A DNA stretch of 42,458 nt from a bacterium (GTDB lineage Bacteria; Desulfobacterota; Desulfuromonadia; Desulfuromonadales; JAAYDE01), in contig JAILGY010000029.1 of NCBI GenBank assembly GCA_024696325.1, forward strand, positions 1-42,458, written 5' to 3'. The notes below the pieces were generated by a model, which saw only the letters and a program-made list of their open reading frames with translations, was not told the origin of the DNA and searched no databases. This document shows positions 5,921-38,663 of the stretch, one piece after another. The position numbers and the translations under genes are program-made. Position 1 is the first letter of the stretch, and every line of letters begins with the position of its first letter.

Positions 5921-7360
5921 ATGTTTATTGACTATAGGTCACCCCGGGAACGGGCCGGACAGTTCCAGCCCAAGACGAAAAAGATGCGCGGGAGAACGAT
6001 CCTGGAATGCCTGGGGATGGTGGCAGGGATCGCGGCGATTCTTCTGTGGACCACCCTGGAAATTACGCCGGTTGATACCGCTTATGAGGCGGGAGAGGAA
6101 AAACGGCCTGATTCTTCCTCTTTGGTCATACCGGAGGAGAATCCGTTTTTGAGTATGGATGAGGGCTTGCCGAAAGAGGCGGAAATGGAGCGGGATCCCC
6201 TGTTTTCGGCAGAGGAAGAGGCCACGTCCACCGCTGATGAGGTGGTGACCGGCGTTATCAATCCTGAAGAAACCTTTACCACCCTGTTGACAAAGTATCT
6301 TTCAACGGCGGAGGTCATCAAAATTGCGGATAAATGCCGTCCTGTCTTCCCCCTGGGACGGATGCAGGTGGGACAGCCCTACAAGTTTCATATCGACAAA
6401 GGGCTTTTCAGCCGTTTCGTCTATGAGATCGACGACAAGGATCAACTTATCATCACACGTGGGAAAAAAGATTTTGTGGTAAAACGCGAAAAGATTCCCT
6501 GCGAGGTGCGGATCCAGACCGTACGCGTGAACATCCGCTCCAGCCTGTCCGGTGCGGTGGCCAGTGCCGGAGAATCCCGGGAACTGGCCAGCAGGGTAGC
6601 GGGAATTTTCGCCTGGGATGTCGATTTCCTTCGCGATATCCGTGCGGGAGATTCCTTCAGCGTTGTTGTGGAAAAGCGGTTTCGCAAGGACAAGTTCGTT
6701 GGCTATGGCAAGATACTGGCTGCGGAAATTGTCAATCAGGGCACCACGTACAAGGCCTACAGGTATGAAACCCGCAAGGGCGTTTTTGGCTATTTCGACG
6801 AAAATGGCAAAAGTCTGCAAAAAGGGTTTCTGCGGGCTCCGCTTGCCTATACCCGCATATCCTCCCGTTTCACCTACCGGCGTTTTCATCCGGTACTGAA
6901 ACGCTATCGTCCTCATACCGGCGTTGACTACGCGGCACCCAGAGGAACGCCGATTCATTCCGTGGCATCTGGTGTGGTGACGGAACGGGGATACAACCGG
7001 TTCAACGGCAAGTTCGTCCGGATTCGCCACAACAACGGCATGGAGACGCTGTACAACCACATGAGCAGTTTTGCGCCGGGGCTCAGTGTGGGAGGGCATG
7101 TACCCCAGGGCAGGATGATTGGCAGGGTGGGTTCGACCGGTCTTTCCACCGGGCCGCATCTTGATTTCCGTATGTACCGCAACGGCGTGCCCATCGATCC
7201 GCTTTCCGTCAAGACCATTTACGCCGATCCGGTTCCAGCGCGGAAAATTGCGGATTTCCGCGCATTGGTCAAATCCTATGCGCCCCAGTTGAAAGCCGGC
7301 GTTCCGATCAATATCGGTGTCGCGGAAAAGAAGGGCAAAAGCTTGATGAAAGGCGGGTGA
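5921..7360 (+). CDS. M23 family peptidoglycan metalloendopeptidase with an N-terminal membrane anchor
   Basis: HTGVDYAAPRGTPIHSVASGVV and GSTGLSTGPHLDFRMY motifs. TM segment ILECLGMVAGIAAILLW. GGAG lies upstream of the ATG. An alternative start at Met23 is possible. Confidence 0.85.
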   Translation: MFIDYRSPRERAGQFQPKTKKMRGRTILECLGMVAGIAAILLWTTLEITPVDTAYEAGEEKRPDSSSLVIPEENPFLSMDEGLPKEAEMERDPLFSAEEEATSTADEVVTGVINPEETFTTLLTKYLSTAEVIKIADKCRPVFPLGRMQVGQPYKFHIDKGLFSRFVYEIDDKDQLIITRGKKDFVVKREKIPCEVRIQTVRVNIRSSLSGAVASAGESRELASRVAGIFAWDVDFLRDIRAGDSFSVVVEKRFRKDKFVGYGKILAAEIVNQGTTYKAYRYETRKGVFGYFDENGKSLQKGFLRAPLAYTRISSRFTYRRFHPVLKRYRPHTGVDYAAPRGTPIHSVASGVVTERGYNRFNGKFVRIRHNNGMETLYNHMSSFAPGLSVGGHVPQGRMIGRVGSTGLSTGPHLDFRMYRNGVPIDPLSVKTIYADPVPARKIADFRALVKSYAPQLKAGVPINIGVAEKKGKSLMKGG

Positions 7361-7382
7361 CCTTCAGGATTGCGGGAATGAA

Positions 7383-7411
7383 TTGACACATTTCCGGCAA
7401 CCTGTTAACTT
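7383..7411 (+). promoter_or_regulatory. Sigma70-like promoter of the thi operon
   Basis: TTGACA (7383-7388), 17-nt spacer, TAACTT (7406-7411), just upstream of the TPP riboswitch. Confidence 0.45.
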
Positions 7412-7436
7412 TGCGGAAAAATTGAAGAGAGAAATG

Positions 7437-7520
7437 CCTTGGGGAGTTTTTACTGAGAATCCCTGAAGAAGGGATAACCCATCGAACCTGATCCGGGTAA
7501 TGCCGGCGAAGGGAAGTGGC
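7437..7520 (+). promoter_or_regulatory. TPP (THI-box) riboswitch aptamer
   Basis: Conserved elements GGGGAG...CUGAGA...ACCC...GAACCUGAUCCGGGUAAUGCCGGCGAAGGGAA lie upstream of the thiamine genes. Confidence 0.9.
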
Positions 7521-7568
7521 AACAAAGCGCGTATCCGCTGTGCGTTATGCGTGATAGTCGTTGTATCA

Positions 7569-7597
7569 GGGCCGCTTTCCGCGGCCTTTGTTTTTTT
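7569..7597 (+). terminator. Riboswitch-controlled attenuator terminator
   Basis: GGGCCGC-tttcc-GCGGCC followed by TTTGTTTTTTT, 50 nt before the thiF start. Confidence 0.75.
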
Positions 7598-7646
7598 GCC
7601 TCGTGCCAGAGGCCGCATGCCCATCTTGAGGGGAAGAAGGTGTGCA

Positions 7647-8456
7647 ATGGACGTTTCTGTCAATGAAAAACCGGTAAGTGTTTCGGAAGGTATGACCTTG
7701 TTTGCCCTCAGGGACAGCTGGAAGCCGGAGGCCGACATCATTATTGTCAACGGTTTCCCCTATGATCGTAAGGAGGACTGCCCGCTTGAGGAGGGGGATC
7801 GGGTGGTGCTGATCAGGCGTGGCGAAATTCCGGATGCCTCCGAGCTGGAAGCCCTGATGGCCTCCCGCCATACGCCCGGCGTGCACCAGAAGATGAAACG
7901 GGCGACGGTCGGCATTGCCGGTGCGGGGGGGCTGGGCTCGGCCATTGCGGTGGCCTTGGCGCGTATTGGCGTGGGGCATCTGATCCTCGCCGATTTTGAC
8001 ATTGTCGAACCTTCCAACCTCAATCGCCAGCAGTACTTTATCGATCAGATAGGTCTTCCCAAGGTAGAAGCGCTTGCGGCCAATCTGGGCCGCATCAATC
8101 CCTATGTGAAGGTGACCACGCACAATCTCCGGCTTACGTCACACAACGTTCCGGAGATCTTTGCCGCGGTGGATGTGATGGTGGAAGCTTTCGACCGCGC
8201 ATCGGAAAAGGCGATGCTTATTGAAACTTTCCGGAGCGGTTTTCCGTCGGTCCCCCTGGTGGCCGCATCGGGCGTTGCCGGCAATGATCCGGCCAACACG
8301 GTGCGTACCCGGCGGCTTTTGGACAATTTTTATCTGGTAGGTGACGGCGTTACCGGAGCGCAACCGGGCCGGGGGCTGATGGCGCCGCGCGTGGGCGTCG
8401 CCGCGCACCATCAGGCCAATGCGGTGGTGCGCCTGCTGTTGGGCGAGGAGCCCTGA
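7647..8456 (+). CDS. thiF: ThiF-type adenylyltransferase with an N-terminal ThiS-like beta-grasp domain
   Basis: 269 aa counted from the ATG at 7647, which follows GGGGAAGAAGG. Nucleotide-binding motif GIAGAGGLGS. The first ~60 aa are ThiS-like (MDVSVNEKPVSV...VVLIRRGE). The longer ORF-track start would overlap the riboswitch and terminator. Confidence 0.85.
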   Translation: MDVSVNEKPVSVSEGMTLFALRDSWKPEADIIIVNGFPYDRKEDCPLEEGDRVVLIRRGEIPDASELEALMASRHTPGVHQKMKRATVGIAGAGGLGSAIAVALARIGVGHLILADFDIVEPSNLNRQQYFIDQIGLPKVEALAANLGRINPYVKVTTHNLRLTSHNVPEIFAAVDVMVEAFDRASEKAMLIETFRSGFPSVPLVAASGVAGNDPANTVRTRRLLDNFYLVGDGVTGAQPGRGLMAPRVGVAAHHQANAVVRLLLGEEP

Positions 8457-8513
8457 GAAAAGCATGTGGACACGCTAAGGGACAACCGCTGAAAAGTTGA
8501 AAAGGAGGCCGCT

Positions 8514-8714
8514 ATGCAAATCTGGATAAATGGAGAACAAAAAGAAATTAAGGAAGGCGAGACCATACAGGATCTGCTCAGGGAGCTGGACTGTGATGCG
8601 GCTACGGTGGTGGTGGAAATGGACGGTACCATTGTGGCGCGCGACGCTTTTGCCGCAACCGTGCTCAATGTGGGCAACCGGCTGGAGATAGTGCGTTTCG
8701 TTGGAGGAGGGTGA
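8514..8714 (+). CDS. thiS: Sulfur carrier protein ThiS
   Basis: 66 aa ending in VGGG (C-terminal Gly-Gly). AGGAGG SD. Confidence 0.9.
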   Translation: MQIWINGEQKEIKEGETIQDLLRELDCDAATVVVEMDGTIVARDAFAATVLNVGNRLEIVRFVGGG

Positions 8715-8802
8715 AACCCTTTCCTAGGAAAAATGTTCCGATAACCGGAGCGTAAAAATAAAAATTTTTTATAAAGAGGAACAAGACGAAAGGAGCAAAA
8801 TC

Positions 8803-9591
8803 ATGGACAAATCCCCTGAATTGATTATCGCCGGCCGGCATTTCCGGTCGCGTCTGCTGGTGGGAACCGGCAAATTTTCCTCAAACGAGATCATGCGTGA
8901 CGCCATTGAGGCGTCCGGCAGCGAGATTGTAACCATCGCTCTGCGCCGTGTGGATATCAACAATCCGCAGGACAACATGCTGCGCTACATTGATCGCCAG
9001 AAATATCTGCTGCTGCCCAACACCAGCGGCGCCCGCGACGCGGAAGAGGCGGTACGTCTGGCTCGTCTGGCCCGGGCGGCTGGCTGCGAGCCGTGGATCA
9101 AGCTGGAAGTCACTCCCGATCCCTACTATCTGTTGCCCGACCCGATAGAGACCTGGAAAGCCGCGCAGATTCTGGTCAAGGACGGTTTCACCGTGCTGCC
9201 CTATATCAATGCCGATCCGGTTTTGGCCAAACATCTGCAGGAGGTGGGCTGCGCGACCGTCATGCCGCTGGGGGCGCCTATTGGTACCAACAAGGGCATA
9301 AAGACGCGCGACAATATCGCGATTATCATTGAGCAGGCGCAGGTGCCGGTGGTGGTGGACGCGGGCCTGGGCGCTCCATCTCATGCCGCCGAAGCCATGG
9401 AAATGGGTGCCGATGCCGTGCTGGTTAACACTGCGCTGGCGGTGGCCCAATCTCCGGTCAATATGGCCATTGCCTTCAAGAAGGGGGTGGAAGCCGGCCG
9501 GGAAGCCTTTGTAGCGGGATTGGGCAAACAGCGCGTGCGGGCGGAAGCTTCCAGTCCCCTCACCGGATTTTTGGGAGGTATCAAGAAATGA
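8803..9591 (+). CDS. thiG: Thiazole synthase ThiG
   Basis: 262 aa. Typical ThiG sequence (LLVGTGKF..., [19 protein letters not shown]). Confidence 0.92.
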
Positions 9592-14908: not shown

Positions 14909-15955
14909 ATGAGTTCGCCTTCCGGATTTCTGGCGGCCTGCCGCAGCCAGCCTGTGGCCTGTACGCCGGTCTGGCTGATGCGTCAGGCGGGACGGGCGCT
15001 TCCCGAATACCGCGCATTGCGTGACCGCTTTTCCTTTTTGCAGTTGTGTAAAACTCCCGAACTGGCAGCGGAAGCAACGTTGCTGCCGGTGCGTGGTTTG
15101 AAGGTGGATGCCGCCATTCTGTTTTTTGATATCCTGCTTCCGCTGGAATCTCTGGGATTGCGCCTTGATTTTACCCCGGCCCCGGTGCTGGAAGCTCCGG
15201 TGCGAACCGTGCAGGCAATTGCCGCTCTGCGTACGCCACGGGTTGCCGGGGATTTGCCCTTTCTGGCGCAGAGTGTCCGGATGGCGAAAGAGGTTTTGGG
15301 ACAAACGCCGCTTATCGGTTTCTGTGGCGCGCCCCTGACGCTTGCCTGCTATCTGGTGGAGGGTGGAAGCAGCGCAAATTTTCCCCATGCGCTTCGCATG
15401 ATGCGGGAAGAACCCGCCCTGTGGGATGCGCTCTTGAACAAACTGACGGATCTTGCCATCGACACCTTGGCCGTCCAGGCCGCGGCAGGCGCTCAGGCAC
15501 TGCAAATCTTCGACACCTGGGCGCAGCTGCTTGATCCGGAGGAGTACCGCATCCGTGTGCTGCCGCATACCCGGCGGCTGGTGGAAGCGGTACGGGGCTC
15601 CGTGCCGGTTCTCTTCTTTTTGCGCGGCGGCGCACCACTCTGGCTGCGTGAATGCGGCGCGGATGTGGTGTCGGTGGATGAAAGCGTTACGCTTGCACAG
15701 GCGCGCAGGGCGAGCGGCGGCAAGGCTGTGCAGGGCAATCTTGCTCCAGAGCTGCTCAAACGGCCGATTAAAGAACTTGAAGGGCATGTACGCCGGGTGC
15801 TTGCGGAAAATGAAGGCGCCCCGGGGCATATTTTCAACTTGGGGCACGGGGTGCCGCCGGATACGCCGGTGGAGAATCTGCGCTTTGTGGTGGACTGTGT
15901 GCACCGGCTGGGCGCCGGAAAGATCCATCCGCAGGGACAGGAGATGAATCCATGA
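14909..15955 (+). CDS. hemE: Uroporphyrinogen decarboxylase
   Basis: N-terminal signature PVWLMRQAGRALPEYRALR. 348 aa. Confidence 0.92.
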   Translation: MSSPSGFLAACRSQPVACTPVWLMRQAGRALPEYRALRDRFSFLQLCKTPELAAEATLLPVRGLKVDAAILFFDILLPLESLGLRLDFTPAPVLEAPVRTVQAIAALRTPRVAGDLPFLAQSVRMAKEVLGQTPLIGFCGAPLTLACYLVEGGSSANFPHALRMMREEPALWDALLNKLTDLAIDTLAVQAAAGAQALQIFDTWAQLLDPEEYRIRVLPHTRRLVEAVRGSVPVLFFLRGGAPLWLRECGADVVSVDESVTLAQARRASGGKAVQGNLAPELLKRPIKELEGHVRRVLAENEGAPGHIFNLGHGVPPDTPVENLRFVVDCVHRLGAGKIHPQGQEMNP

Positions 15956-16971
15956 GCGAACCTGACAAGGCGAGAGCCCTGGTTTTGCTGAATCTGGGCG
16001 GGCCGGAAAATTTGGAGGAGGTGCGGCCCTTCCTGCGGCGGCTCTTTTCCGATTGCGCCATGCTGTCCTTGTTGCCGGGTGGAGTGGGGCAGGCGGCCTT
16101 TGCCCGGTTTCTGGCCTGGCTGCGGACGCCACAGGCCTTGTCCAGGTACCGCGCCATTGGTGGCGGATCGCCCTTGCGCGCATGGACGCAACGGCAGGCA
16201 CGCGCGATCTGTGAGCATTCGTCATGCTCTCTTCGGCCTTTTGTCGCGCTGCGTCATTCCGCGCCTTTTGCCGCGGAGACGCTGGCCGTGATTCGCGATG
16301 CCCACATCGATGAGGCGGTGGTGCTGCCCATGTATCCCCAGTATGCCGCGGCCACCACCGGCAGTGCGCTCAAGGATTTTGAAAAGGCGGCCGTGCTTGT
16401 ACATCCGAACTTGCGGTACACGGTGATTGGGCCGTGGTATCTTGACGCCGGGTATCTGGATGCTCTGGCCGCCACCGTGCGCGAAGGGTTGAGCGCCTTT
16501 TCCGAGGAACAGCGTTCTCGGGTACCCATCCTCTTTTCGGCGCATGCGCTGCCGCAGCGGATGATTGATCGGGGCGATCCCTACCTGAAGCAGACGTTCG
16601 GGACGGTGCGTGGCGTGGTGGATCGTCTGGGGGAATGTACCTGGCATCTGGGTTTTCAGAGCCGCAGTGGTCCGGTGCGCTGGGTTGGGCCCTCCATACG
16701 CGAAATCATGGAGCGGCTTTCCCGGCAGAGGCATCGGACGCTTTTGATGGTGCCGGTTTCGTTTGTCTGCGATCATCTGGAAACGCTCTGGGATATGGAT
16801 GTCGAGTATCGCAAGCTGGCAAAAAGTCTGGGGATCCTCCACTTCGTCCGTTCGCCCGCGCTGAATGTGCGCCCCGATTTCGTCGATGCGCTGGTCCATT
16901 TGGTGGAAGAGCAGGTTCGGCGGGAGGCTGCCCAGGAACAGCAGAAAGCCTTGCCGCCCTGCAGGTTCTGA
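15952..16971 (+). CDS. hemH: Ferrochelatase (HemH/CpfC family)
   Basis: ALVLLNLGGPENLEEVRPFLRRLFSD N-terminus. ATGA overlap with hemE. Confidence 0.9.
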   Translation: MSEPDKARALVLLNLGGPENLEEVRPFLRRLFSDCAMLSLLPGGVGQAAFARFLAWLRTPQALSRYRAIGGGSPLRAWTQRQARAICEHSSCSLRPFVALRHSAPFAAETLAVIRDAHIDEAVVLPMYPQYAAATTGSALKDFEKAAVLVHPNLRYTVIGPWYLDAGYLDALAATVREGLSAFSEEQRSRVPILFSAHALPQRMIDRGDPYLKQTFGTVRGVVDRLGECTWHLGFQSRSGPVRWVGPSIREIMERLSRQRHRTLLMVPVSFVCDHLETLWDMDVEYRKLAKSLGILHFVRSPALNVRPDFVDALVHLVEEQVRREAAQEQQKALPPCRF

Positions 16972-16985
16972 AAAGCAGCGGTTGA

Positions 16986-17582
16986 ACAGTTGAAAGGTAT
17001 GACCGCAAAACCGTGGCTGCCAGTATGCGGCGGCAAAACTTGCAGGCCAGGGCAGCAAGGAAATACAAAGCCACAACCAACTCAAAGCACGATCTCCCCG
17101 TTGCGCCCAATCTGCTTGCTCAAAATTTCAGCGCCAGCGCTCCAAACCAGAAATGGGTTAGCGATATCACCTATCTCCGGACCAATGCGGGCTTGCTGTA
17201 TCTTGTTGTAATTATTAGCCTGTTTTCATGGCTGGTTGTTGGTTGGACAATGGCGGAGCGTATGACGGCCGAGCTTGTGTGTGAGGCCTTGCAGATGACG
17301 CTTTGGCGGCGCCAAAAAACACGATGCTATTGCAGCATGAGCGGCAAGGGCAACTGCTACGACAATACCTGCGCTGAAAGTTTTTTCACAACTTGAAGGT
17401 CGAGGCCATCCAGGGCGAGAGCTTTGTCACTCGTGAAAAGATGCGTCAGGCTGTATTCGAATATATTGAAGTTGACTACAATCGTACCCGCCGCCATAGT
17501 GCCATTGGATGTATCAGCCCCATGGCGTTTGAAGCACGTCAACACGCTTAACTCAGTGTCCACTCATGACGGGCAAGATTAG
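16986..17582 (+). mobile_element. Decayed IS3-family transposase (OrfB) remnant: 5'-truncated, internally deleted and frameshifted
   Basis: Matches IS3 OrfB motifs ([52 protein letters not shown]). The HSDRGSQY core region is missing. There is a 1-nt frameshift in the T-run at 17381-17386. The first catalytic Asp position reads Ser. A possible right end lies near 17580. Confidence 0.8.
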
Positions 17583-17599
17583 TACGATGGAGCGAGATA

Positions 17600-18733
17600 A
17601 TGGCTCAACAAGGAACAATCAAAAAACTCTACGTCAGTGGTTTCAAGTCCATCCGGGAATTAAATGATTTTGAACTGCGCCCTCTGAACATCTTCATCGG
17701 CGCGAACGGCGCGGGCAAGAGCAATCTGGTGCAGCTTTTCCGAATGCTCATGGCTATGGCCGGGAAGCATTTTCAAAAATTCGTCCTGGAAAATGGCGGG
17801 GCAGACAATTTTCTTCATAATGGGCCAAAGCATACGGAGACAATCAATCTTGCATTGGAGTTTATATCACATAGTTCATATTCAGAAGGATCAAATTTTT
17901 ACAGGTGTATACTAACACCTACAGTTGATGATATATTTCTGATTGAAGAAGATAGGAAATATAAAGATTCAAACTGGAATAGTTATGGAAGTGCATCAAA
18001 AGAGAGCAGATTATGCGAAAAAAGTGATGAGAAGTCAATGATAGGAACTAGTTTTGGTATTGGTTATTATGTTTATAATGCTATATCAAATTGGATGGTC
18101 TATCATTTTCATGATACAAGTCCTGCATCGCCTATGCGACGATCCGAGATTATTGAAGATAACTTCAGGTTGAGACATAATGGCAGCAATTTGGCTCCAT
18201 TTTTGCTTTCATTAAAAAATACTTTTTTCAGTAGTTATGATGAAATTGTAAACGCCATACGTTTAGTACTCCCATTTTTTGATGATTTCATCCTTGATAT
18301 TTTCAAGTACGGTGAAGCGGAAAAGGTCAGATTGAGTTGGCGGCAAAAGGGTTCTGACTTCCCGATGCAGCCCTATCATCTGTCTGATGGGTCCATCCGT
18401 TTTATCTGCCTGGCCACGGCGCTTTTGCAGCCGAATCCACCCTCCACCATCATTATCGACGAGCCGGAACTGGGTCTGCATCCGGAGGCCATCCGCATGC
18501 TGGGCGAGCTGATGCAGGACGCGGCCAAACGCGCGCAATTGATTGTGGCCACACAGTCGCCGCTTCTGCTCGATCAGTTTGCCGTCGAAGACATTGTGGT
18601 GGTCAGACGCGAAGGCGGGCAATCCGTTTTTTCCCGGTTGCAACGGGACGATTTCGCCGAATGGTTGGAGGAGTATTCTGTGGGCGATCTCTGGACCCGA
18701 AATATCATTCAGGGGGGCAGCAACCATGAGTGA
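17600..18733 (+). CDS. ABC/SMC-type AAA ATPase (AAA_15/21-like), partner of DUF4276
   Basis: Walker A GANGAGKSN, signature-like LSDGSIRF and Walker B IIIDEPELGLHP. ATQSP is where the H-loop is usually found. GGAG SD. Confidence 0.85.
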   Translation: MAQQGTIKKLYVSGFKSIRELNDFELRPLNIFIGANGAGKSNLVQLFRMLMAMAGKHFQKFVLENGGADNFLHNGPKHTETINLALEFISHSSYSEGSNFYRCILTPTVDDIFLIEEDRKYKDSNWNSYGSASKESRLCEKSDEKSMIGTSFGIGYYVYNAISNWMVYHFHDTSPASPMRRSEIIEDNFRLRHNGSNLAPFLLSLKNTFFSSYDEIVNAIRLVLPFFDDFILDIFKYGEAEKVRLSWRQKGSDFPMQPYHLSDGSIRFICLATALLQPNPPSTIIIDEPELGLHPEAIRMLGELMQDAAKRAQLIVATQSPLLLDQFAVEDIVVVRREGGQSVFSRLQRDDFAEWLEEYSVGDLWTRNIIQGGSNHE

Positions 18734-19457
18734 ATGCCCTGCATCCTTTGCCGAGGTGATCGTGCTGACGGAAGGCACCACAGAACAGCTTTTCGTCAAA
18801 TGCCTGCTTGCTCCGTATCTGGCTTCGCACGGTGTCTACCTGACCCCAATACAGTTGAGCAAGCCCGGCGAGAAGGGCGGGGACGTGAAATTCGCCCGGG
18901 CTAAAAATGATATCGGCAAACACCTCAAGCAGCGGCCTGACACACGGATCACTCTCATGGTGGATTACTACGGCATCAAGTCCGACTGGCCGGGCCATGC
19001 GGAGGCGAAACAGCGCCGTGACCACGTCGAAAGCGCGGCCATCATGCGACAGGCGACCGCACGGGCAGTAGCGGAACTCTTTCCTGGGCTTGATGCGGAG
19101 CGGCGCTTCCTGCCCTATGTTTCCATGCACGAGATCGAGGCGCTGTATTTTAGCGATCCCGCCTGTCTTGCGGAGAAACTGGACGTTGAGCAAAAACGGA
19201 TCGACGCAATTCTCGCGGAGTGTGGGGAGCCGGAGCGTATTGATGATGGTCGGGAAACCGCACCTTCCAAACGGTTGGAAGCGCTCATGCCCCGCTTCAA
19301 GAAAACCGTGACCGGCATTGCCGTTGCAGAGGCCATAGGCATTACAACCATGCGGGCAAAATGCCCGCTCTTCGACGCTTGGCTGCGCGACCTGGAATCG
19401 TTTGCCGAAAACAACGAATTTGTGGAGGAGCTGGACGGGACGGTACCTGGCGCATGA
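18726..19457 (+). CDS. DUF4276 family protein (putative Toprim-like effector partner of the ATPase)
   Basis: 243 aa counted from the ATG at 18726, overlapping the ATPase stop by 8 nt (ATGAGTGA). Family-typical VLTEGTTE, MVDYYG, HEIEALYF and APSKRLE segments, recognised from memory. Confidence 0.7.
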   Translation: MSECPASFAEVIVLTEGTTEQLFVKCLLAPYLASHGVYLTPIQLSKPGEKGGDVKFARAKNDIGKHLKQRPDTRITLMVDYYGIKSDWPGHAEAKQRRDHVESAAIMRQATARAVAELFPGLDAERRFLPYVSMHEIEALYFSDPACLAEKLDVEQKRIDAILAECGEPERIDDGRETAPSKRLEALMPRFKKTVTGIAVAEAIGITTMRAKCPLFDAWLRDLESFAENNEFVEELDGTVPGA

Positions 19458-19505
19458 GGGACGGAGTGCGCAGCGGCTTGGCTTGCATGAAGGGAGAGGA
19501 CAGAA

Positions 19506-20000
19506 GTGCACAGTGAAATTGAACGCCGTTTTCTGGTCACCGGCGATGCCTGGCGAAAGGACGTGGCAAGCCGTGAGGAATTGTTTCAGGGTTATCTGCA
19601 CGTGGGTGATGAAAAGGCGATCCGGGTGCGTCTTGCTTCCGCAGGCGCGACGCTGACCATCAAGGCAGCGATCAGCGACATTGTGCGCCATGAATTCGAA
19701 TATGCGATTCCGCCGGATGATGCGCGGCGTTTGTTGGATCTGTGCGGCTCCCGTCGCGTTGAAAAGATCCGCCACCGTCTGGAGTACGCGGGAAAAATCT
19801 GGGAAGTGGACGAGTTTCTGGGAGAAAATGCCGATCTGGTGCTGGCGGAAATTGAGCTGGAGTGTGAAGGGGAAGAATTTGCAAAACCACCCTGGCTGGA
19901 TCTGGAAGTGACAGGCGATCCGCGCTACAGCAATGCTGCGCTGGCCCTGCTGCCCTTTGGACGTTGGCGGGAGCGCAAAGGCCTGTCTGCTTTGTCCTGA
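19506..20000 (+). CDS. CYTH-domain (triphosphate tunnel metalloenzyme) protein
   Basis: N-terminal EIERRFLV (an ExExK-type motif with R in place of K). 164 aa. GTG start after AAGGGAGAGGA. Confidence 0.8.
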   Translation: MHSEIERRFLVTGDAWRKDVASREELFQGYLHVGDEKAIRVRLASAGATLTIKAAISDIVRHEFEYAIPPDDARRLLDLCGSRRVEKIRHRLEYAGKIWEVDEFLGENADLVLAEIELECEGEEFAKPPWLDLEVTGDPRYSNAALALLPFGRWRERKGLSALS

Positions 20001-20144
20001 AACTCTGCGGAAATTTTTACGTAAAATTATACAAATTTCTAAGTCATTATCTTTACAATAAAAAATTGGCATCATGCATCTCGATCCATTATCATAAAGA
20101 ACAGGTTTTCAAGAACGCCACCCTTCGGAGAAAGGAGAGGCGCC

Positions 20145-20846
20145 ATGAAGGGAATGCTGACGCTTTGTTTGGTGTTGTGCTTGTGCACTCCTGTCTGGGC
20201 ACAGAAGTTGACCACCTTTCTTGATGAGACGGAACGGCGCGCGGCGGCGGAAACACTTCAGCATGCATTGGAAAACAACAAGGATGGTGCGGAAAGTTCC
20301 TGGGCCAATCCGGAACGTCGCCATTCGGGAGCCATCACGCCCACACGCAGCTACATCAACGAGGACAATCTTTCCTGCCGTGAGTATATCTCGACTATTA
20401 TGATTGAGGGCGCATCGATGCGTACACTTGGCTCCGCCTGCCGTAACGGCGAGGGGGGCTGGGTCGTCATGGGAGAGCGGACGGAAGTCTCGAGCTCAAA
20501 TCCGCAACATGTCTACGTCTACCGTGATCCCTACGTCTACGGTTCTTCGGTGTATACCTGTTATGCGCCTGCCTTCTACCCGCACAGGCTTTTCTTCAGC
20601 TTCGCCTTTGGAACAGGCGCTTTTTTCTATCCCTATTTTTACGATGGCTGGTGGTATGGCGGGCCGTATTACCACCATCACCACCATCATCATCCGCCCC
20701 CTCCGCCTGGTCCGGCACCGCATGGTTTTCATGGCGGTCCTCCTGGCCATGCGCCCGGGCATGGGCCGCATGGCGGATTTCACCGGAGTGGTCCGCCGGG
20801 CGGGCATTTTCATGGCGGGCATCACGGCCATGGCCCCCGCCGCTGA
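20145..20846 (+). CDS. Secreted protein with a surface-antigen-like domain, an aromatic-rich segment and a His/Pro/Gly-rich tail
   Basis: Signal peptide MKGMLTLCLVLCLCTPVWA. The central domain has two Cys (CREY...ACRNGEGGW). The C-terminus is HHHHHHHPPPPPGPAPHGFHGGPPGHAPGHGPHGGFH.... AAGGAGAGG SD. Confidence 0.7.
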   Translation: MKGMLTLCLVLCLCTPVWAQKLTTFLDETERRAAAETLQHALENNKDGAESSWANPERRHSGAITPTRSYINEDNLSCREYISTIMIEGASMRTLGSACRNGEGGWVVMGERTEVSSSNPQHVYVYRDPYVYGSSVYTCYAPAFYPHRLFFSFAFGTGAFFYPYFYDGWWYGGPYYHHHHHHHPPPPPGPAPHGFHGGPPGHAPGHGPHGGFHRSGPPGGHFHGGHHGHGPRR

Positions 20847-28020: not shown

Positions 28021-28962
28021 ATGGATGTGATGCGCGGCGGGCGTTCTGCTTTTTTTGCGTTTGTACTCCTGGCTGCGGTGAGCCTTGCCTTTTGGTCTTC
28101 CGCTGCCAGCGCCCGCAGTGTGCGGGATGCGGTGGGGCGCCTTGTCGAGGTGCCGCAGACGCCGCGCCGCATCGTGTCGCTGGTGCCCAGCGTCACGGAA
28201 ATTCTTTATGCGGTAGGGGCGGAAAAGACGCTGGCGGGCATCACCGAGTTCAGCGACTATCCGCCCCGGGCCGCCCGCTTGCCCAGTGTGGGCCGCTACG
28301 ATCGCCCGAGTCTGGAGGCAATCGTGGCGTTGAAGCCCGATTTGGTGTTTGCCACCGCCGACTGTCACTCGCGCGGGTTTGTGGGCGCGCTCGAGAAATT
28401 GGGATTGGCCGTCTACGTGGTGTATGCGCGCAGTATCTCCGCCACCCTGAACGATATCCGCATCCTGGCGGAACTTGCCGGCCGGGCCAGGGAGGGGCAG
28501 GCGCTCGCGGATTCTATGGAACGGGAACTTGCGGCGATGCGGATGCGGAGCGCCGGCCGTCAAAGGCCGAAGGTGGTGCTCTGCATCATGCTGCGTCCGC
28601 TGATGGTCTGCACGCCGCGCACCCTGGGCGGAGAACTGCTGGCAGCGGCCGGAGCGGACAATCTGGTGCCGGATGGCGGCGCTTCCTATCCGGTCTGGAG
28701 CCGCGAAGCTCTGCTTGCCGCCGATCCGGATATCATTATTGCGGTCTCCCACGCGCAGGATGAGGATCCGGCGGCCTTTTTCCGCGTCCATGCCCCGGCG
28801 CTTGCCGGGCGGGTGCGGGTTGTTCCCGCCGACTGGCTCTGCCGTCCAGGCCCGCGTCTGCTTCTTGGGCTGCGGGCACTGGAGCGGGCGCTGGACGGTT
28901 GGGCATCTCGCCGGAATGAAACAGGGGACATGGGCCATGATCAAAATCGGGGGAAAATTTAA
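28021..28962 (+). CDS. Periplasmic cobalamin/siderophore-type substrate-binding protein (BtuF-like)
   Basis: Signal peptide. IVSLVPSVTEILYAVGAEKTLAGITEFSDYP is typical of Peripla_BP_2 proteins. Confidence 0.8.
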   Translation: MDVMRGGRSAFFAFVLLAAVSLAFWSSAASARSVRDAVGRLVEVPQTPRRIVSLVPSVTEILYAVGAEKTLAGITEFSDYPPRAARLPSVGRYDRPSLEAIVALKPDLVFATADCHSRGFVGALEKLGLAVYVVYARSISATLNDIRILAELAGRAREGQALADSMERELAAMRMRSAGRQRPKVVLCIMLRPLMVCTPRTLGGELLAAAGADNLVPDGGASYPVWSREALLAADPDIIIAVSHAQDEDPAAFFRVHAPALAGRVRVVPADWLCRPGPRLLLGLRALERALDGWASRRNETGDMGHDQNRGKI

Positions 28963-30139
28963 TACGGCGTTCTGCTACACGAATGAACTGGAAGAACTTG
29001 CCGCCGGGCAGATACGTGCTGTCTGCGATCAGGAAGCCTTCAAGGACTGCAGGATCCGCATAATGCCCGACGTGCATGCCGGCAAGGGCTGCACCATTGG
29101 CACCACCATGACCATCAGGGACAAAATCGTCCCGGGCATGGTTGGCGTCGATATTGGCTGCGGCATGGAAACGGTCAGGCTCAAAGAGCGCAGCGTTGAC
29201 TTTTCCAGACTTGACGATCTGATTCGCCGTCAAATCCCGTCCGGGCAGGATATCCGCAAGACCCCCTACGCGCCGAAGATCATGGAGAGCCTGCGAGAAC
29301 TGCGCTGCGCGGATCAGGTTAAGCTGGACAGGGCGGTTCACAGTGTCGGCACGCTTGGAGGCGGCAATCACTTCATCGAGCTCGACTGTGATGATGAAGG
29401 CTGCCTGTACCTCGTTGTGCATTCCGGCTCTAGGCATATCGGACTTGAAGTGGCCGAATACTACCAGAATCAGGGACGATACGCCCTGTGGGGAGGTGCC
29501 CGGTATCAGCTCAATGCCATGATAGAGGAACTCAAGGCGGCTGGCCGGCACTGGGAAATCGAGCCGATGATACGAAAAATGCGCAAGGAGCATCCGATCG
29601 ATATTCCGAAGGACCTTGCCTATGTCGAGGGCAGGCTCTTTGATGAGTATATCCATGATATGAGGATCGTCCAGGGCTTTGCCATGGAAAATCGCCGGGC
29701 GATGGTGCAGACGATCGTGAAAGGTCTCCATTTGACACCAGAGGAACAGTTCACGACCATCCATAACTATATCGACACGGAAAGCATGATCCTGCGCAAG
29801 GGATCCGTTTCCGCCCGGAAGCATGAAAAACTCCTCATCCCGATCAACATGCGCGATGGCAGTCTAATATGTCTTGGCAAGGGCAACCCGGACTGGAACT
29901 GTTCCGCTCCGCACGGAGCGGGAAGGCTCATGTCCCGCAAGGCCGCGATGAACTCACTTTCGCTGGAAGAATACCGCTCCGAAATGTCGGGCATCTTTTC
30001 GACCTGTGTATCGAAAGCTACGCTTGATGAAGCGCCCATGGCCTACAAGAGCATGAATGATATCGTTGATCATATAGGCCCGACCGCCGACATTGTGAAG
30101 CGGATCCAACCGGTCTACAACTTCAAGGCCGCCGAATAA
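28937..30139 (+). CDS. rtcB: RtcB-family RNA 3'-phosphate ligase (short, about 400 aa)
   Basis: MIKIGGKFNTAFCYT N-terminus, typical of short RtcB proteins. MPDVHAGKGCTIG, GGGNHFIE and APHGAGR motifs. The start overlaps the btuF-like gene by 26 nt. Confidence 0.88.
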   Translation: MIKIGGKFNTAFCYTNELEELAAGQIRAVCDQEAFKDCRIRIMPDVHAGKGCTIGTTMTIRDKIVPGMVGVDIGCGMETVRLKERSVDFSRLDDLIRRQIPSGQDIRKTPYAPKIMESLRELRCADQVKLDRAVHSVGTLGGGNHFIELDCDDEGCLYLVVHSGSRHIGLEVAEYYQNQGRYALWGGARYQLNAMIEELKAAGRHWEIEPMIRKMRKEHPIDIPKDLAYVEGRLFDEYIHDMRIVQGFAMENRRAMVQTIVKGLHLTPEEQFTTIHNYIDTESMILRKGSVSARKHEKLLIPINMRDGSLICLGKGNPDWNCSAPHGAGRLMSRKAAMNSLSLEEYRSEMSGIFSTCVSKATLDEAPMAYKSMNDIVDHIGPTADIVKRIQPVYNFKAAE

Positions 30140-30910: not shown

Positions 30911-31198
30911 ATGAAAATGGCTACAGCCAATATTAACGTCCGTGTCGATAGCGAGTTGAAAGCCCAGGCGGAATCCCTGTTTTCTGATCTCGGTATGAAT
31001 ATGTCCACGGCTATTATCATGTTTCTTAAAAGTGCGGTGAGCCATGACGGATTACCGTTTGAAGTGAGGAGAGCAACGCCAAATGCCGAGACACGCGCCG
31101 CTCTTTCCGAATATGCAGAAATGAAAGAGAATCCGGCAGCCTATAAGCGATATGATTCCTTTGACGACGCCTTGAACGAGGTTCTCGCCGATGCTTAG
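30911..31198 (+). CDS. dinJ: RelB/DinJ-family antitoxin
   Basis: ANINVRVDSELKAQAESLFSDLGMNMSTAIIMFL resembles E. coli DinJ. The start may be 30917. Confidence 0.85.
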   Translation: MKMATANINVRVDSELKAQAESLFSDLGMNMSTAIIMFLKSAVSHDGLPFEVRRATPNAETRAALSEYAEMKENPAAYKRYDSFDDALNEVLADA

Positions 31199-31463
31199 AG
31201 TCGTCCTGTCAAACCACTTCAAAAAAGATTTAAAATATGCACAGAAACGCGGACTAAACCTTGATCTGTTACGGATGGTTGTCAACACGTTGGCTGATGG
31301 AAAGAAACTGGACAAAAAGTATCGTGACCATGAATTGACCGGAGATTATGTCGGATTTCGGGAGTGCCATGTGCAACCGGACTGGCTCCTGGTGTACCGG
31401 ATCGAGCAGGAGGAACTGGAACTTTTTCTTTTCCGCACAGGCTCACATTCGGATTTGTTCTGA
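31191..31463 (+). CDS. yafQ: YafQ-family mRNA interferase toxin
   Basis: KKDLKYAQKRG...YRDHELTGDYVGFRECHVQPDWLLVY...RTGSHSDLF closely parallels E. coli YafQ. 8-nt overlap with the antitoxin gene. Confidence 0.88.
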   Translation: MLRVVLSNHFKKDLKYAQKRGLNLDLLRMVVNTLADGKKLDKKYRDHELTGDYVGFRECHVQPDWLLVYRIEQEELELFLFRTGSHSDLF

Positions 31464-35339: not shown

Positions 35340-38300
35340 TCACCACACATACGTTATACGGTCAGGCAGCGTTGGCGGAGTGCCGCCTTCCTTCTGCAGC
35401 ACGGAGGACACACCGTCGGGCAGGATGCGCACATTGACGTTCTTCACGCCCGCAGCCTCCATGACGCCCTCCGCGTCTTCAAAGTCCTTCTGTGAAAAAT
35501 TGCGCGTCCCGTACTGGAATTCTTTCAGGAAGTCCGCGAACGTTTCGTAGACCCTTGTAAGGGTAAAGGACGGAAAATCTATTTCAAGCGTCGCGGCGCC
35601 GCACTTCTTTACGGTGTACTGGAACTTTTCGTCACGCGGGTAGTTGCGGTTGACCAGGGAATACTCCTTGTCCTCGCACTGAAGCGTGAGCGTTGTGGAA
35701 TCAACGCGCTCCTTGGCATCCACATTGACCAGCGTGGGCTGCGAACGCAGCTGCACATAATAGGTATCCTCCGGCGGCTGGGCGGCAATTATCTCCGCCT
35801 GGGACAGGACATTCAGCCCGTCCCTGGTGAAGGGAAAGATGATACTGCCCCAGCTTGCGGCGGAAAGGGCTTTCCCCCTGCGCGTGAGGAAGGGCCTGAG
35901 ATGCGCATCCACAAAGGTCTGCACCACGCCCTTGTCGCCGTAAAGGGCCGTCACGTCGTCCTGCCGGTACAGGGCCGCAGCGCTGCCCAGCACCTCATTT
36001 TCCCACGCCTCCTGCACCACCTTTGCCGCCTGGACGGTGACGCCCTGGGCGATGAAATCCAGAATGCCCGGCAAAAGTTTCAGCATGGGATTCCGGCCGT
36101 TGGTCCTGAACGAAGCGGTTATGTTTTCAAGTTCTTTTTTGGCTTTGGCGTACGGGTCTTCCGTACCCGGTTCCAGCGCCTTGCCGCTGTTTTCGAGAGT
36201 GGCTCGCTGCGAGGCCAGCCTGTGCCCGCCAAACCATGAGGCTGCCAGCGCGTAGGATTGTTCGGGGCTGGCCACCACCGGCAGCAGGGTTAGCGTGTTG
36301 TCAAAGTACGCCTTCAGGTCTTCCGCGATTTCAAGCATCTGCCGTGCCTGCCTGGAATCCTTGGTTTCGGCACGCAGGCGTTGCATCAGCTCCGGCGTGG
36401 AGGTGACCATGGAAAGCAGGGCTCTGGCGCGGCTCGTGGCTTCCTGCCTGTGCTCAAACTCGGCAATGTCCACCACCACGTCCATAAGCATGCAGCCAGA
36501 GAACCAGGGGGGGGTGTCCTCGCCGGCATTTCTCAGAGGGGTCAGCTCATCCGCCACCTGCTGGAGAGCGCGGTAATGCGGCATATCCTCAATTCTGCTG
36601 ATGTTCGCGTAGGAAATGAACACATCACCTTCCTGCATGGAAGCGCGGATGTTGGAAAAAGCACTGGTAAAATCGGACCACAGCTCGGCGTAGCGGCGGA
36701 AATACTCCGAGCGGAAGGCGCTGGCGCTTTGCCGTATGGCCCCGCCCGGCTCATCCAGGGACTCCAGGTCTTCCAGAACGTCGCCAAAGGCCTTGTAGCC
36801 CGTGCGTGTATAGGCAGGCGGGACGCAGACGTTGTTGGGATCCGAAGAATTCACATGCGGCCAGAACTGCGTGAGGCAGACCGCGGCGGCGGGATAGCGG
36901 CTGTTGATATCGTCCAGCATGTCCTCAAGCGCGCCATTCCCTTTACGCCTCAGGCTTGCGGCCAGCAGGGCGCGCATTTCCCGCGTGAAGCTGTCCACCT
37001 GGTCTCCGTCGGCCATCCAGTGGACGGCGTTGACAATGAGGCGCCCGGTCACAGGGTTCCAGAGACGGGTATCCTGCGAGGTGATGGGGAAGGACCAGTT
37101 TTTTTCCACGGCCATGTGTTCATTGTTGATCCTGTCCGAAGCCACGGCAGTCAGCCACATGAGCTCGCGCCGCATCTCCTGTTCCTGGCCATGGGTTATG
37201 GGTTTAAGGCCGCCAAGGCGGGAACGGTACTGCGTAAGCAGGGGGCTGAGGATTTTCTGGTAGATTTTTCCCGTAAAGTTGGAACGTGAGGCGTTCAACT
37301 CCCTGGAAAGGGCGTCCTGGCCGAACTTGGGCAGGTACCAGACCTTCCGCGCTTTTTCCAGCTTCTTGATATAGAGCATCTGCTGGTAGAGCCTGTCGGT
37401 TTCCGCATCATGCGCGATGCCTGGCGTGGAGGGAGCCGCCTCGGTCAGGGCCTGGTGCTGGTAGATCACATTGACGCCCATAAGCCCGCACAGTCCCAGC
37501 AGAAGCAGCAGCCAGGCCCCCATGACGCATGCCCGCGTATTGGCCACAAAAGGGAGCCCGCGCGTGAGCGGGGCGGGAGAAACGGATGAGGGCAGGACAT
37601 GGGAAAGCAGGCCTGTGAGGAAAGCGGGGGGACGTCCTTCCGTACTCTCTCCCTGGCAGAAGCAGACGCCGTCAAGCCGGATCTGGACCTGGTGCGCCAC
37701 CTCGCGGGAAAGTTGTCCCGTCACCAGCTGCAGTTTGCTGCCAAGGGCGCGCAGGGAGCGCAGCGCCTCAAGCATGTCCCCTTCAGGCTGATGCTCCCCT
37801 GCCGCGGCATCCCGGATCATGTCTTCCAGGCGCAGGGCGGCCGCTTCGGCGGCAGTGTTCATACTGGCCGGTGCATGATGCATCTCTCCCAGCACCGTGT
37901 TGAATTCGCCGGCCGGCACGATATCCAGGATCCTGTCCATGCCGGGTAGGCTTTCTATCCCCTGGATCAGAACATAAACCGGATACCGGCGGTTCATGGT
38001 CAGCATGAGCTGCTGCACTTTGCTGCGCAGGTTCCGGCCCAGAACCGCGAGTTCTTCACCGCTGCGGCGGGCGATATCCGTAATGGAAAGCAGCAGCACG
38101 ATGCCGCGCAGGGGGATGTGATGGCTCTTCCCGGACAAATGTGTCAGCAGTTCCTGCCAATCCTCCTGGGACAGTTGTGCCTCCGGGCAGCGCAGCAGTA
38201 CCGACGCTGAAAGGAAATGCCAGAAAAGCGGGGAATCCGCTGCTTCCGGCAGCGTTTCACCCATGGAGGCGAACAGGTTGGAAGAGCGGCCCGAAGTGTC

Positions 38301-38663
38301 CAGGGTCACAAACCAGGGCTGGCTGAATTCCATGCGTTCGTGAAAACGCTGCGGCGAGGTCCGCAGCACTTTCATTCCCTGCTGCCAAGAGTAGGCCATG
38401 CGCCCGAGCACCGCAGGCGAAGCCGCTTCCATGGCGGATTGTTCATTCAGGACCTTGTGGACGAAACGCGTTTTGTCGTGCAGGCGGTAAAGCGCGCGCG
38501 CGCCAATGAAGGCAAGCACAAGGCCAAACAGCGCCAGCAGGATGACCACGCCCGTAGTCAGCGGCCACTGCATCCACCAGGAGAGCAGGGTCAGCAGGGC
38601 AAGCAGCAGCAGGAGAAGCAGGAGCCACAGGATGCCCTTGAGCAGTTTGAGCAGAATCTTCAT
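35340..38663 (-). CDS. tssM: T6SS membrane complex subunit TssM (IcmF family)
   Basis: 1107 aa. Two N-terminal TM segments, a cytoplasmic domain, a third TM segment and a large periplasmic IcmF-like region. The P-loop position reads PWFVTLDTSGRSSN. Confidence 0.88.
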   Translation of the reverse strand: MKILLKLLKGILWLLLLLLLLALLTLLSWWMQWPLTTGVVILLALFGLVLAFIGARALYRLHDKTRFVHKVLNEQSAMEAASPAVLGRMAYSWQQGMKVLRTSPQRFHERMEFSQPWFVTLDTSGRSSNLFASMGETLPEAADSPLFWHFLSASVLLRCPEAQLSQEDWQELLTHLSGKSHHIPLRGIVLLLSITDIARRSGEELAVLGRNLRSKVQQLMLTMNRRYPVYVLIQGIESLPGMDRILDIVPAGEFNTVLGEMHHAPASMNTAAEAAALRLEDMIRDAAAGEHQPEGDMLEALRSLRALGSKLQLVTGQLSREVAHQVQIRLDGVCFCQGESTEGRPPAFLTGLLSHVLPSSVSPAPLTRGLPFVANTRACVMGAWLLLLLGLCGLMGVNVIYQHQALTEAAPSTPGIAHDAETDRLYQQMLYIKKLEKARKVWYLPKFGQDALSRELNASRSNFTGKIYQKILSPLLTQYRSRLGGLKPITHGQEQEMRRELMWLTAVASDRINNEHMAVEKNWSFPITSQDTRLWNPVTGRLIVNAVHWMADGDQVDSFTREMRALLAASLRRKGNGALEDMLDDINSRYPAAAVCLTQFWPHVNSSDPNNVCVPPAYTRTGYKAFGDVLEDLESLDEPGGAIRQSASAFRSEYFRRYAELWSDFTSAFSNIRASMQEGDVFISYANISRIEDMPHYRALQQVADELTPLRNAGEDTPPWFSGCMLMDVVVDIAEFEHRQEATSRARALLSMVTSTPELMQRLRAETKDSRQARQMLEIAEDLKAYFDNTLTLLPVVASPEQSYALAASWFGGHRLASQRATLENSGKALEPGTEDPYAKAKKELENITASFRTNGRNPMLKLLPGILDFIAQGVTVQAAKVVQEAWENEVLGSAAALYRQDDVTALYGDKGVVQTFVDAHLRPFLTRRGKALSAASWGSIIFPFTRDGLNVLSQAEIIAAQPPEDTYYVQLRSQPTLVNVDAKERVDSTTLTLQCEDKEYSLVNRNYPRDEKFQYTVKKCGAATLEIDFPSFTLTRVYETFADFLKEFQYGTRNFSQKDFEDAEGVMEAAGVKNVNVRILPDGVSSVLQKEGGTPPTLPDRITYVW

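Follow-up and report, generated by a model that had tools for sequence, protein, structure and literature searches.

The gene pair at positions 17600 to 19457 of contig JAILGY010000029.1 (assembly GCA_024696325.1, from a bacterium of the Desulfuromonadales) is, judged by its sequence, an ordinary stand-alone copy of HEC-01, an already catalogued candidate anti-phage family, and is not a new type of system. The whole contig, 42,458 nt long, is referred to here as the window. The pair encodes an ABC ATPase and a DUF4276 protein:

17600 to 18733, forward strand: ATPase gene (HEC-01A), 377 aa, with an ATG start and GGAG 9-12 nt upstream.
18726 to 19457, forward strand: DUF4276 gene (HEC-01B), 243 aa.
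18726 to 18733, forward strand: 8 nt gene overlap, ATGAGTGA, the DUF4276 start codon lying within the end of the ATPase gene.

In an earlier reading, made without database searches, these genes had been proposed as a candidate two-gene ATPase and DUF4276 defence module, located in a small accessory islet, that could not be assigned to a named family. The module is supported by full-length matches of both proteins to HEC-01 in PADLOC, one of the checks that had been suggested for the pair, and it does belong to a named family, for which the published assays are mixed. The ATPase matches the HEC-01A profile (PDLC04175) with E=7.6e-133 and 441 bits, residues 5-373 aligning with profile positions 4-361 of 363, and the DUF4276 protein matches the HEC-01B profile (PDLC04188) with E=9.1e-74, residues 7-227 aligning with positions 11-227 of 230. 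Membership of HEC-01 calls for an HEC-01A match with an adjoining HEC-01B match on the same strand, and this is what is found here. The PADLOC matches to AriA, mad3, AbiLi, NsnB, Old, and GajA are far weaker.

Both open reading frames (ORFs) and their overlap ATGAGTGA lie where they had been described. Because the DUF4276 start codon is inside the end of the ATPase gene, translational coupling is implied. Among related loci with cleanly called starts, the 8 nt overlap is the commonest spacing between the two genes, and wherever a related locus is long enough for the gene order to be read, the ATPase gene is in essentially all cases directly 5′ of the DUF4276 gene.

HEC-01 (Hma-embedded candidate 01; PADLOC-DB v2) was named by Payne, Hughes, Fineran & Jackson (bioRxiv 10.1101/2024.01.29.577857), who described it as an ABC ATPase with a TOPRIM-like partner that has a conserved metal site, located in Hma operons. 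In a cold-seep metagenome study, a HEC-01 cluster is reported to defend E. coli B against one or more of the phages T4, T5, and T7, and one paper includes HEC-01 among DefenseFinder predictions. In the paper on MADS (methylation-associated defence system) of P. aeruginosa, deletion of either mad3, encoding an ATPase, or mad4, encoding a DUF4276 protein, weakens defence. The restriction-modification (R-M)-like gene mad5 was not deletable in that work unless mad2 or mad3 was also deleted, and MAD6-8 are presented there as mandatory, with MAD3/4 as accessory.

The first protein of the pair is an ABC ATPase of the SMC/Rad50/OLD/PtuA type. All six motifs quoted in the sequence-only reading, three in each protein, were recovered by translation at the expected coordinates, and two further ATPase features can be added to them:

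17699 to 17725, forward strand: Walker A, translated motif GANGAGKSN.
18380 to 18394, forward strand: signature, translated motif LSDGS.
18449 to 18469, forward strand: Walker B, translated motif IIIDEPE.
18470 to 18484, forward strand: D-loop, LGLHP, invariant columns in 29 homologues.
18554 to 18556, forward strand: H-loop position, Gln319 (VATQSP), where the usual His is replaced by Gln in all 29 aligned family members.

In Pfam, the ATPase matches AAA_21 (E=3.1e-33), as well as AAA_15, SMC_N, and DUF2813. Its homologues, nearly all of ~377 aa and from many phyla, share 65-81 % identity over 98-100 % of the query, and across 29 of them the Walker A, LSDGS signature, Walker B, and D-loop are invariant. 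The closest solved structures by sequence are the class 2 OLD nuclease 6p74 (E=4e-9) and AriA (8ux9; E=4e-4). When the AlphaFold2 (AF2) model (pLDDT 75) was searched with Foldseek, PtuA, the SMC head, Rad50, and OLD 6p74 were found at E of ~1e-13 to 1e-14, the top structural neighbours being the retron/Septu PtuA chains 9n69, 9e90, and 9l7p (E ~1e-14). The suggestion that the pair is of the OLD, PARIS, AbiL, or Septu-like kind is therefore borne out by its nearest solved ATPase relatives, the OLD nuclease, retron/Septu PtuA, and SMC/Rad50 heads, AriA being the weaker relative by sequence.

The GC content of the first 700 nt of the ATPase gene (17600-18300) is 0.375, against 0.577 for the window. 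This stretch is also low in the homologue at L004, the nearest of the related loci, which are numbered here with the prefix L; the low GC therefore travels with the cassette and carries no host signal. A hypervariable ATPase insert behind the low GC was considered and rejected, on the basis of the homologue identities given above and the low GC at L004.

The second protein matches Pfam DUF4276 over the whole profile (E=6.2e-54) and is likely to be a Toprim-like metal-dependent nuclease. Its translated motifs and invariant acidic residues are as follows:

18762 to 18785, forward strand: translated motif VLTEGTTE.
18957 to 18974, forward strand: translated motif MVDYYG.
19128 to 19151, forward strand: translated motif HEIEALYF.
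Invariant acidic residues, forward strand: E16 (18771 to 18773), E20, D80 (18963 to 18965), E136 and E138 (19131 to 19139), and E170.

Close homologues of this protein, found across phyla, are 62-78 % identical, and the DUF4276 profile matches 3,927 clusters (50 % identity), nearly all of them single-domain proteins of ~220-240 aa. In a comparison of 25 close and 36 distant members, the residues that are invariant among members at 33-55 % identity are E16, G17, E20, G52, D80, E136, E138, F142, E170, P180, F216, and W219. The AF2 model (pLDDT 80) has a beta-alpha-beta-alpha-beta...beta core, in which E16 follows strand 1 (9-15), D80 follows strand 3, and E136 and E138 follow strand 4. The Toprim feature of a conserved Glu at the end of strand 1 within an alpha/beta core of order beta2-beta1-beta3-beta4 is thus seen in E16 and the predicted strand order. 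The strand beta1 with its Glu is also where OLD-like_TOPRIM aligns (residues 8-29) in 24 of 25 members, with a best E of 0.0012 that falls short of the Pfam threshold, and this supports the nuclease-like reading that had been made of the protein. A profile search of PDB sequences with DUF4276 returned nothing below E=0.16. DUF4276 has been placed in the Toprim superfamily, as a homologue of Mad4 (PMC12065111), and Toprim catalytic residues were reported in the Menshen DUF4276 domains in the same work.

Both genes are intact and this is not a pair of pseudogenes. In comparison with L004, the nearest relative, the ATPase has a dN/dS of 0.13 and the DUF4276 protein one of 0.18 at a dS of ~0.8, indicating purifying selection; these are pairwise values between the free-standing window copy and an embedded one, and the constraint cannot be assigned to either branch. 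Departures from columns that are conserved in 90 % or more of members number four out of 157 in the ATPase and six out of 104 in the DUF4276 protein, which is within the family range. The Walker A, signature, Walker B, and acidic invariants are all kept. It is highly unlikely that the pair is instead a decaying remnant, two pseudogenes in the making that are carried along with a dead insertion sequence (IS). The adjoining IS3 element is clearly decayed, other sequence has taken the place of the native ATPase 5′ end and of the DUF4276 3′ tail, and the usual partner genes are absent, all as such a remnant would have it. However, both ORFs are full length with a good ribosome-binding site, the invariant residues are kept, the conserved-column deviations and dN/dS are as given above, and several independent assemblies and read sets show the same arrangement, likewise intact.

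Comparison with related loci shows where the cassette begins and ends. Window positions 17611-19415 align in blastn with 6880-8690 of L004 at 80.1 % over 1822 nt, with no homology in the flanks; the DNA homology, being confined to the two genes, marks the extent of the transferred cassette. In L004 and in L002 and L003, which are Desulfofustis-type, the pair is located between a large N6_N4 methylase gene (mod) upstream and a helicase gene that overlaps the DUF4276 stop codon, and the gap between mod and the ATPase gene in these nearest relatives is 0 to -4 nt. PADLOC identified the embedding neighbours as MTase_III (E=7.8e-196, and E=0 for L004) and REase_III (E=4.8e-173), the downstream gene of L004 being a UvrD/GajB-like helicase instead of REase_III. 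The cassette in the window would come from a lineage whose usual place is inside Type III R-M-like operons, with mod on one side and res on the other, both of these partners being absent here.

At L003 (1180-5291 and 12309-13658), the embedding operon has a mod gene cut down to 463 aa and lies between transposase genes of the DDE_Tnp_1 and rve types. Here, too, IS activity has eroded the operon that hosts the pair, while the pair itself is intact.

The pair was located in 89 loci, which form 66 clusters at 95 % or greater nucleotide identity, and both flanks could be read in 37 of these clusters. Nine of the 37 have the pair fully embedded between methylase and helicase, one keeps the helicase together with a mod vestige, and approximately eight have only a vestige of the mod C-terminus, 14-78 aa long and directly before the ATPase gene, the shortest of these being tentative. 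The remaining ~19, including the window, are free-standing with no mod or res traces. Neither flank of the window matched the mod and helicase references in blastx; the IS3 remnant lies upstream and a CYTH-domain gene downstream. Mod C-terminal vestiges directly upstream of the ATPase gene were seen at L099, L104, L106, L110, L114, L121, L122, L124, L125, L138, L152, and L164. At L121, for which little upstream sequence is available, a 25 aa mod C-terminal vestige upstream is accompanied by a res N-terminal vestige of ~34 aa downstream. In the main mod family, the last 40 residues are 79-100 % conserved, against 56-74 % for the preceding 400. With such vestiges beside them, free-standing copies seem to derive repeatedly from embedded ones, and the vestiges suggest either repeated escape of the cassette or recombination at gene ends.

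The embedding operons are themselves diverse: their methylases fall into at least three types unrelated to one another, and their helicases into two. On the Aeromonas plasmid pE31A, the operon consists of a SNF2-related protein, DUF4391, an ATP-binding protein, a methyltransferase, the pair, and a DEAD helicase. A free-standing pair with its own helix-turn-helix (HTH) gene is present on a conjugative Desulfotalea plasmid. Small same-strand ORFs 5′ of free-standing pairs were examined as regulators and in general rejected, as nine out of ten have no credible Pfam domain and only the Desulfotalea plasmid ORF is an HTH gene; in separate blast comparisons, several free-standing pairs proved to have a mod C-terminal vestige just upstream. 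Homologues at 62-81 % protein identity occur in Chlorobi, Acidobacteria, Desulfobacterota, Verrucomicrobia, Gammaproteobacteria, and others, and 13 plasmid records carry one. The family has spread horizontally across phyla and onto plasmids. Carriage by phages or satellites was rejected, there being no relatives in the INPHARED phages or IMG/VR.

Downstream of the free-standing pair at L099, positions 6443-9142 hold a full-length match to PADLOC PDC-S06 (E=0), which is ABC-ATPase-like. Some free-standing pairs therefore adjoin other candidate defence genes.

By analogy with characterised systems, the pair in the window is probably an autonomous HEC-01 module in which the ATPase controls the DUF4276 nuclease upon a phage-derived cue. 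The autonomy is argued from the ~19 out of 37 clusters that are free-standing, one of them on the conjugative Desulfotalea plasmid with its own HTH gene. In such a module, the ABC ATPase would oligomerise, bind its partner and restrain it, as in AriA, PtuA, and the ATPase domain of OLD. The infection cue would be read through ATP binding by the ATPase, and would then release or activate the DUF4276 protein as a metal-dependent nuclease effector. Beyond family membership, gene coupling, and conservation, each step of this mechanism is inferred, including nuclease action, the division into sensor and effector, the trigger, and the substrate.

A number of results weigh against this reading. The HEC-01 homologue tested by Payne et al. 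(10.1101/2024.01.29.577857) gave no protection in E. coli against any phage of the panel. In the closest relatives of the pair (81 % and 77 % aa identity), the genes are in tight linkage with those of a Type III methylase and of a helicase or Res; the pair may therefore need partners that are missing from the window, and with these relatives embedded between mod and res the autonomy of the window copy is not certain. The Gln that replaces the H-loop His may make ATP hydrolysis slow or altered, or turnover unusual. The DxD that follows strand 3 in Toprim domains is absent from the DUF4276 protein, the family having D80-Y-Y (D-[Y/F/L]-[Y/F]), in which only one Asp is invariant; the other ligands may come from E136 and E138, invariant residues that follow strand 4. 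Foldseek searches of the DUF4276 model against PDB and BFVD gave nothing at E of 1e-3 or below and no Toprim in the top 50; the likeness to Toprim that two papers report was obtained by other methods. Lastly, no other defence genes were identified among the ten large window ORFs scanned, all of which are of housekeeping type.

The coupling to methylases raises the main rival reading, possible but doubtful, in which the pair is an accessory sub-module of methylation-based restriction (Type III R-M-like, Hma, or MADS-like) that needs a methylase and a helicase or Res. The window copy would then be an orphan left after IS3-mediated loss of its partners, inert or only conditionally active in defence. 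The mod gene directly upstream and the helicase overlapping the DUF4276 stop in the nearest relatives (MTase_III, REase_III) are consistent with this, as are the approximately eight free-standing clusters that keep a vestige of the mod C-terminus, L121 keeping a res N-terminal vestige as well. The behaviour of mad5, deletable only with mad2 or mad3, ties the ATPase to methylation-controlled toxicity, and it was a stand-alone HEC-01 that was inactive in the assays of Payne et al. However, in half of the related clusters neither mod nor res has left a trace and yet the pair is intact and conserved, and the HEC-01 cluster that protected E. coli B had been cloned alone. The dN/dS of 0.13-0.18 against embedded L004 also argues for constraint, with the limit that a pairwise value does not assign it to a branch. 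Likewise, free-standing copies with their own regulator on a conjugative plasmid, and at least three methylase and two helicase types in the embedding operons, fit a portable guest better than a fixed subunit.

The two ends of the window copy bear on its history, the left one adjoining an IS3 remnant:

17004 to 17582, forward strand: decayed IS3-family element, from blastn against plasmid IS3 elements (query 33-611).
17472 to 17500, forward strand: sigma-70-like match, TTGACT, 17 nt spacer, and CATAGT, a consensus match inside the IS3 remnant that faces the ATPase gene.

The first few ATPase codons in the window differ from those of relatives, and the last 13 DUF4276 codons are non-homologous, the corresponding residues being predicted to be disordered. 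Both junctions are therefore just inside the gene pair. The left one coincides with the IS3 end and the right one lies within the disordered C-terminal tail of the DUF4276 protein. In the IS3 remnant, transposase frames at 17013-17396 and 17393-17551 correspond to positions 173-273 (E=1.6e-38) and 324-369 (E=1.2e-10) of the 369-position NCBIfam transpos_IS3 model, with Pfam rve and rve_2 matches. OrfA and the N-terminal 172 residues of the transposase are missing, and there is a frameshift and an internal deletion. The alignment to an Azotobacter IS3 is conserved beyond the transposase stop codon, through GGGCAAGATTAG, and since the similarity continues past this stop, the right end of the IS is placed ~17 nt before the ATPase ATG. 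The earlier description of a decayed IS3 transposase following hemH is therefore correct, hemH ending at 16971 and the remnant following it in two frames, but the term IS-flanked holds for the upstream side only, as neither an IS nor flanking repeats were found downstream. A second IS, direct or inverted repeats, and att sites were sought at the islet borders, and only short repeat matches at chance level were seen. The sigma-70-like site in the remnant may act as an outward promoter. As no terminator-like site was seen in 16800-20300, read-through from hemE-hemH is a further possibility.

A more specific history can be proposed, which we regard as speculative and rather unlikely. HEC-01 would be a specialised guest of Type III-like restriction operons, a back-up or guard that fires when a phage disables restriction; the vestiges would be repeated escapes, and the window copy a functional escape at an IS3 end. 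Firing upon disabled restriction likens it to PrrC, which guards Type I R-M, and to PARIS. If this were true, the nuclease family would be tied to anti-restriction sensing, the flanking mod and res vestiges would record escapes whose breakpoints fall just inside neighbouring genes, and there would be a directional model from embedded defence genes to independent systems.

Roles outside defence were also considered, the pair serving either as a selfish module for addiction or stabilisation, or in DNA repair or processing while hitch-hiking on mobile DNA. Such roles are improbable. They would agree with the stand-alone form of the clade having no demonstrated defence in Payne et al., with the lack of a defence neighbourhood among the scanned window ORFs, with an ATPase fold that is common to the repair and condensation ATPases SMC, Rad50, and RecF, and with the presence of the family on plasmids. 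However, no genomic association is stronger or more consistent than the one with restriction-modification operons, the closest characterised relatives of the ATPase (OLD, PtuA, and AriA) are all defensive, protection by one HEC-01 representative has been reported, and mad3 and mad4 are required for MADS defence.

Among known systems, the pair differs from HEC-01 in nothing essential. It has the ABC ATPase followed by the DUF4276/TOPRIM-like protein, and the family includes copies embedded in methylase/helicase systems as well as free-standing ones, the window copy being one of the latter, beside an IS3 remnant. The relatives found here are mostly in PADLOC Type III mod/res operons, whereas the family was first noticed in Hma operons; the pE31A operon looks Hma-like by its gene content. 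With PARIS, the pair shares a split ABC ATPase and a small Toprim-class effector, AriA models match the ATPase (PADLOC E=1.8e-31, partial), and the logic may plausibly be shared as well, an ATPase scaffold restraining a nuclease until a phage cue. However, the effector is DUF4276 rather than DUF4435/AriB, with no AriB or DUF4435 match in PADLOC or Pfam, and the ATPase, at 377 aa, is shorter than the solved AriA chains of 464 residues. PARIS is also often in viral genomes, according to the PARIS paper, whereas the pair has no relatives in the phage or IMG/VR collections.

Mad3 and Mad4 of MADS are likewise an ATPase and a DUF4276 protein in a methylase-containing operon, both needed for full defence, and the ATPase matches mad3 in PADLOC (E=4.3e-27). 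The relationship is distant, as the NCBIfam MAD3 score is 92.7 bits against a cut-off of 420 and the DUF4276 protein has no mad4 match; no likeness to mad6-8 was seen among the window neighbours and the ten large ORFs scanned. OLD and Gabija GajA have the same ATPase class, and a second point in common is that DUF4276 is weakly matched by OLD-like_TOPRIM around strand 1 and the Glu there. They differ in that there are two separate polypeptides here, the Old and GajA models cover only the C-terminal ATPase motifs, the islet has no helicase and the window none of GajB type, and DUF4276 has no DxD and no Toprim by Foldseek. Septu was the first system noticed by Payne et al. (10.1101/2024.01.29.577857) to be embedded in Hma, and PtuA of Septu and retrons is the top structural neighbour of the ATPase model. 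However, the Septu effector is the HNH nuclease PtuB, of which there is no HNH match here, and the NCBIfam PtuA score is 32 bits against a cut-off of 500.

On its own, the window adds little, being one more intact homologue of a family that PADLOC detects. The family deserves attention because it is large, spans many phyla, is matched on its DUF4276 side by no solved structure, by sequence or fold, in the database copies searched, and has conflicting published phage assays. With approximately one quarter of clusters between mod and helicase or res, one quarter with mod vestiges, and one half free, there is a concrete contrast for experimenters, and this contrast of embedded with orphaned copies bears on whether such modules act alone or only with a methylation system.

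The islet lies between housekeeping genes on its left and a CYTH-domain gene on its right:

15952 to 16971, forward strand: hemH (ferrochelatase), Pfam PF00762 on an identical protein, the last gene of a radical-SAM/hemE/hemH block.
19506 to 20000, forward strand: CYTH-domain gene, 164 aa, GTG start, Pfam CYTH E=1.2e-14, no PADLOC match.

The hemH gene is the housekeeping left border of the islet and is outside the candidate system. Its neighbour hemE is URO-D (E=5e-113), and the radical-SAM, hemE, hemH order is kept in the distant relatives L013 and L014, both of which are without the pair. In a HemH scan of genome contigs, the nearest hemH in the genome collection has 45 % identity and is from a Nitrospirota metagenome-assembled genome, and exact-protein look-ups returned only contigs of 0.7-2.4 kb with the same arrangement as the window. 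The CYTH gene was rejected as a third component of the system, since it has no PADLOC match and is beside the pair in no related locus but L093, which is the same sequence in another assembly.

Further along the window, positions 20145-20846 encode a putative lipoprotein with a 17-kDa-antigen-like domain whose C-terminal tail (YYHHHHHHHPPPPPGPAPHGFHGG...) is strikingly rich in His, Pro, and Gly. A homologue of the RNA ligase RtcB (28673-30139; Pfam E=1.8e-60) is just upstream of a putative toxin-antitoxin patch at 30911-31463, where the GC content is 0.47-0.50. Two small overlapping ORFs are located in this patch, a putative DinJ/RelB-type antitoxin (95 aa, MKMATANINVRVDSELK...) and a putative YafQ/RelE-type toxin (90 aa), as judged by eye from the translations. 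On the reverse strand, positions 35340-38663 encode a protein of 1,106 aa with an IcmF-related N-terminal domain (Pfam E=1.2e-20), which may be a TssM-like component of type VI secretion.

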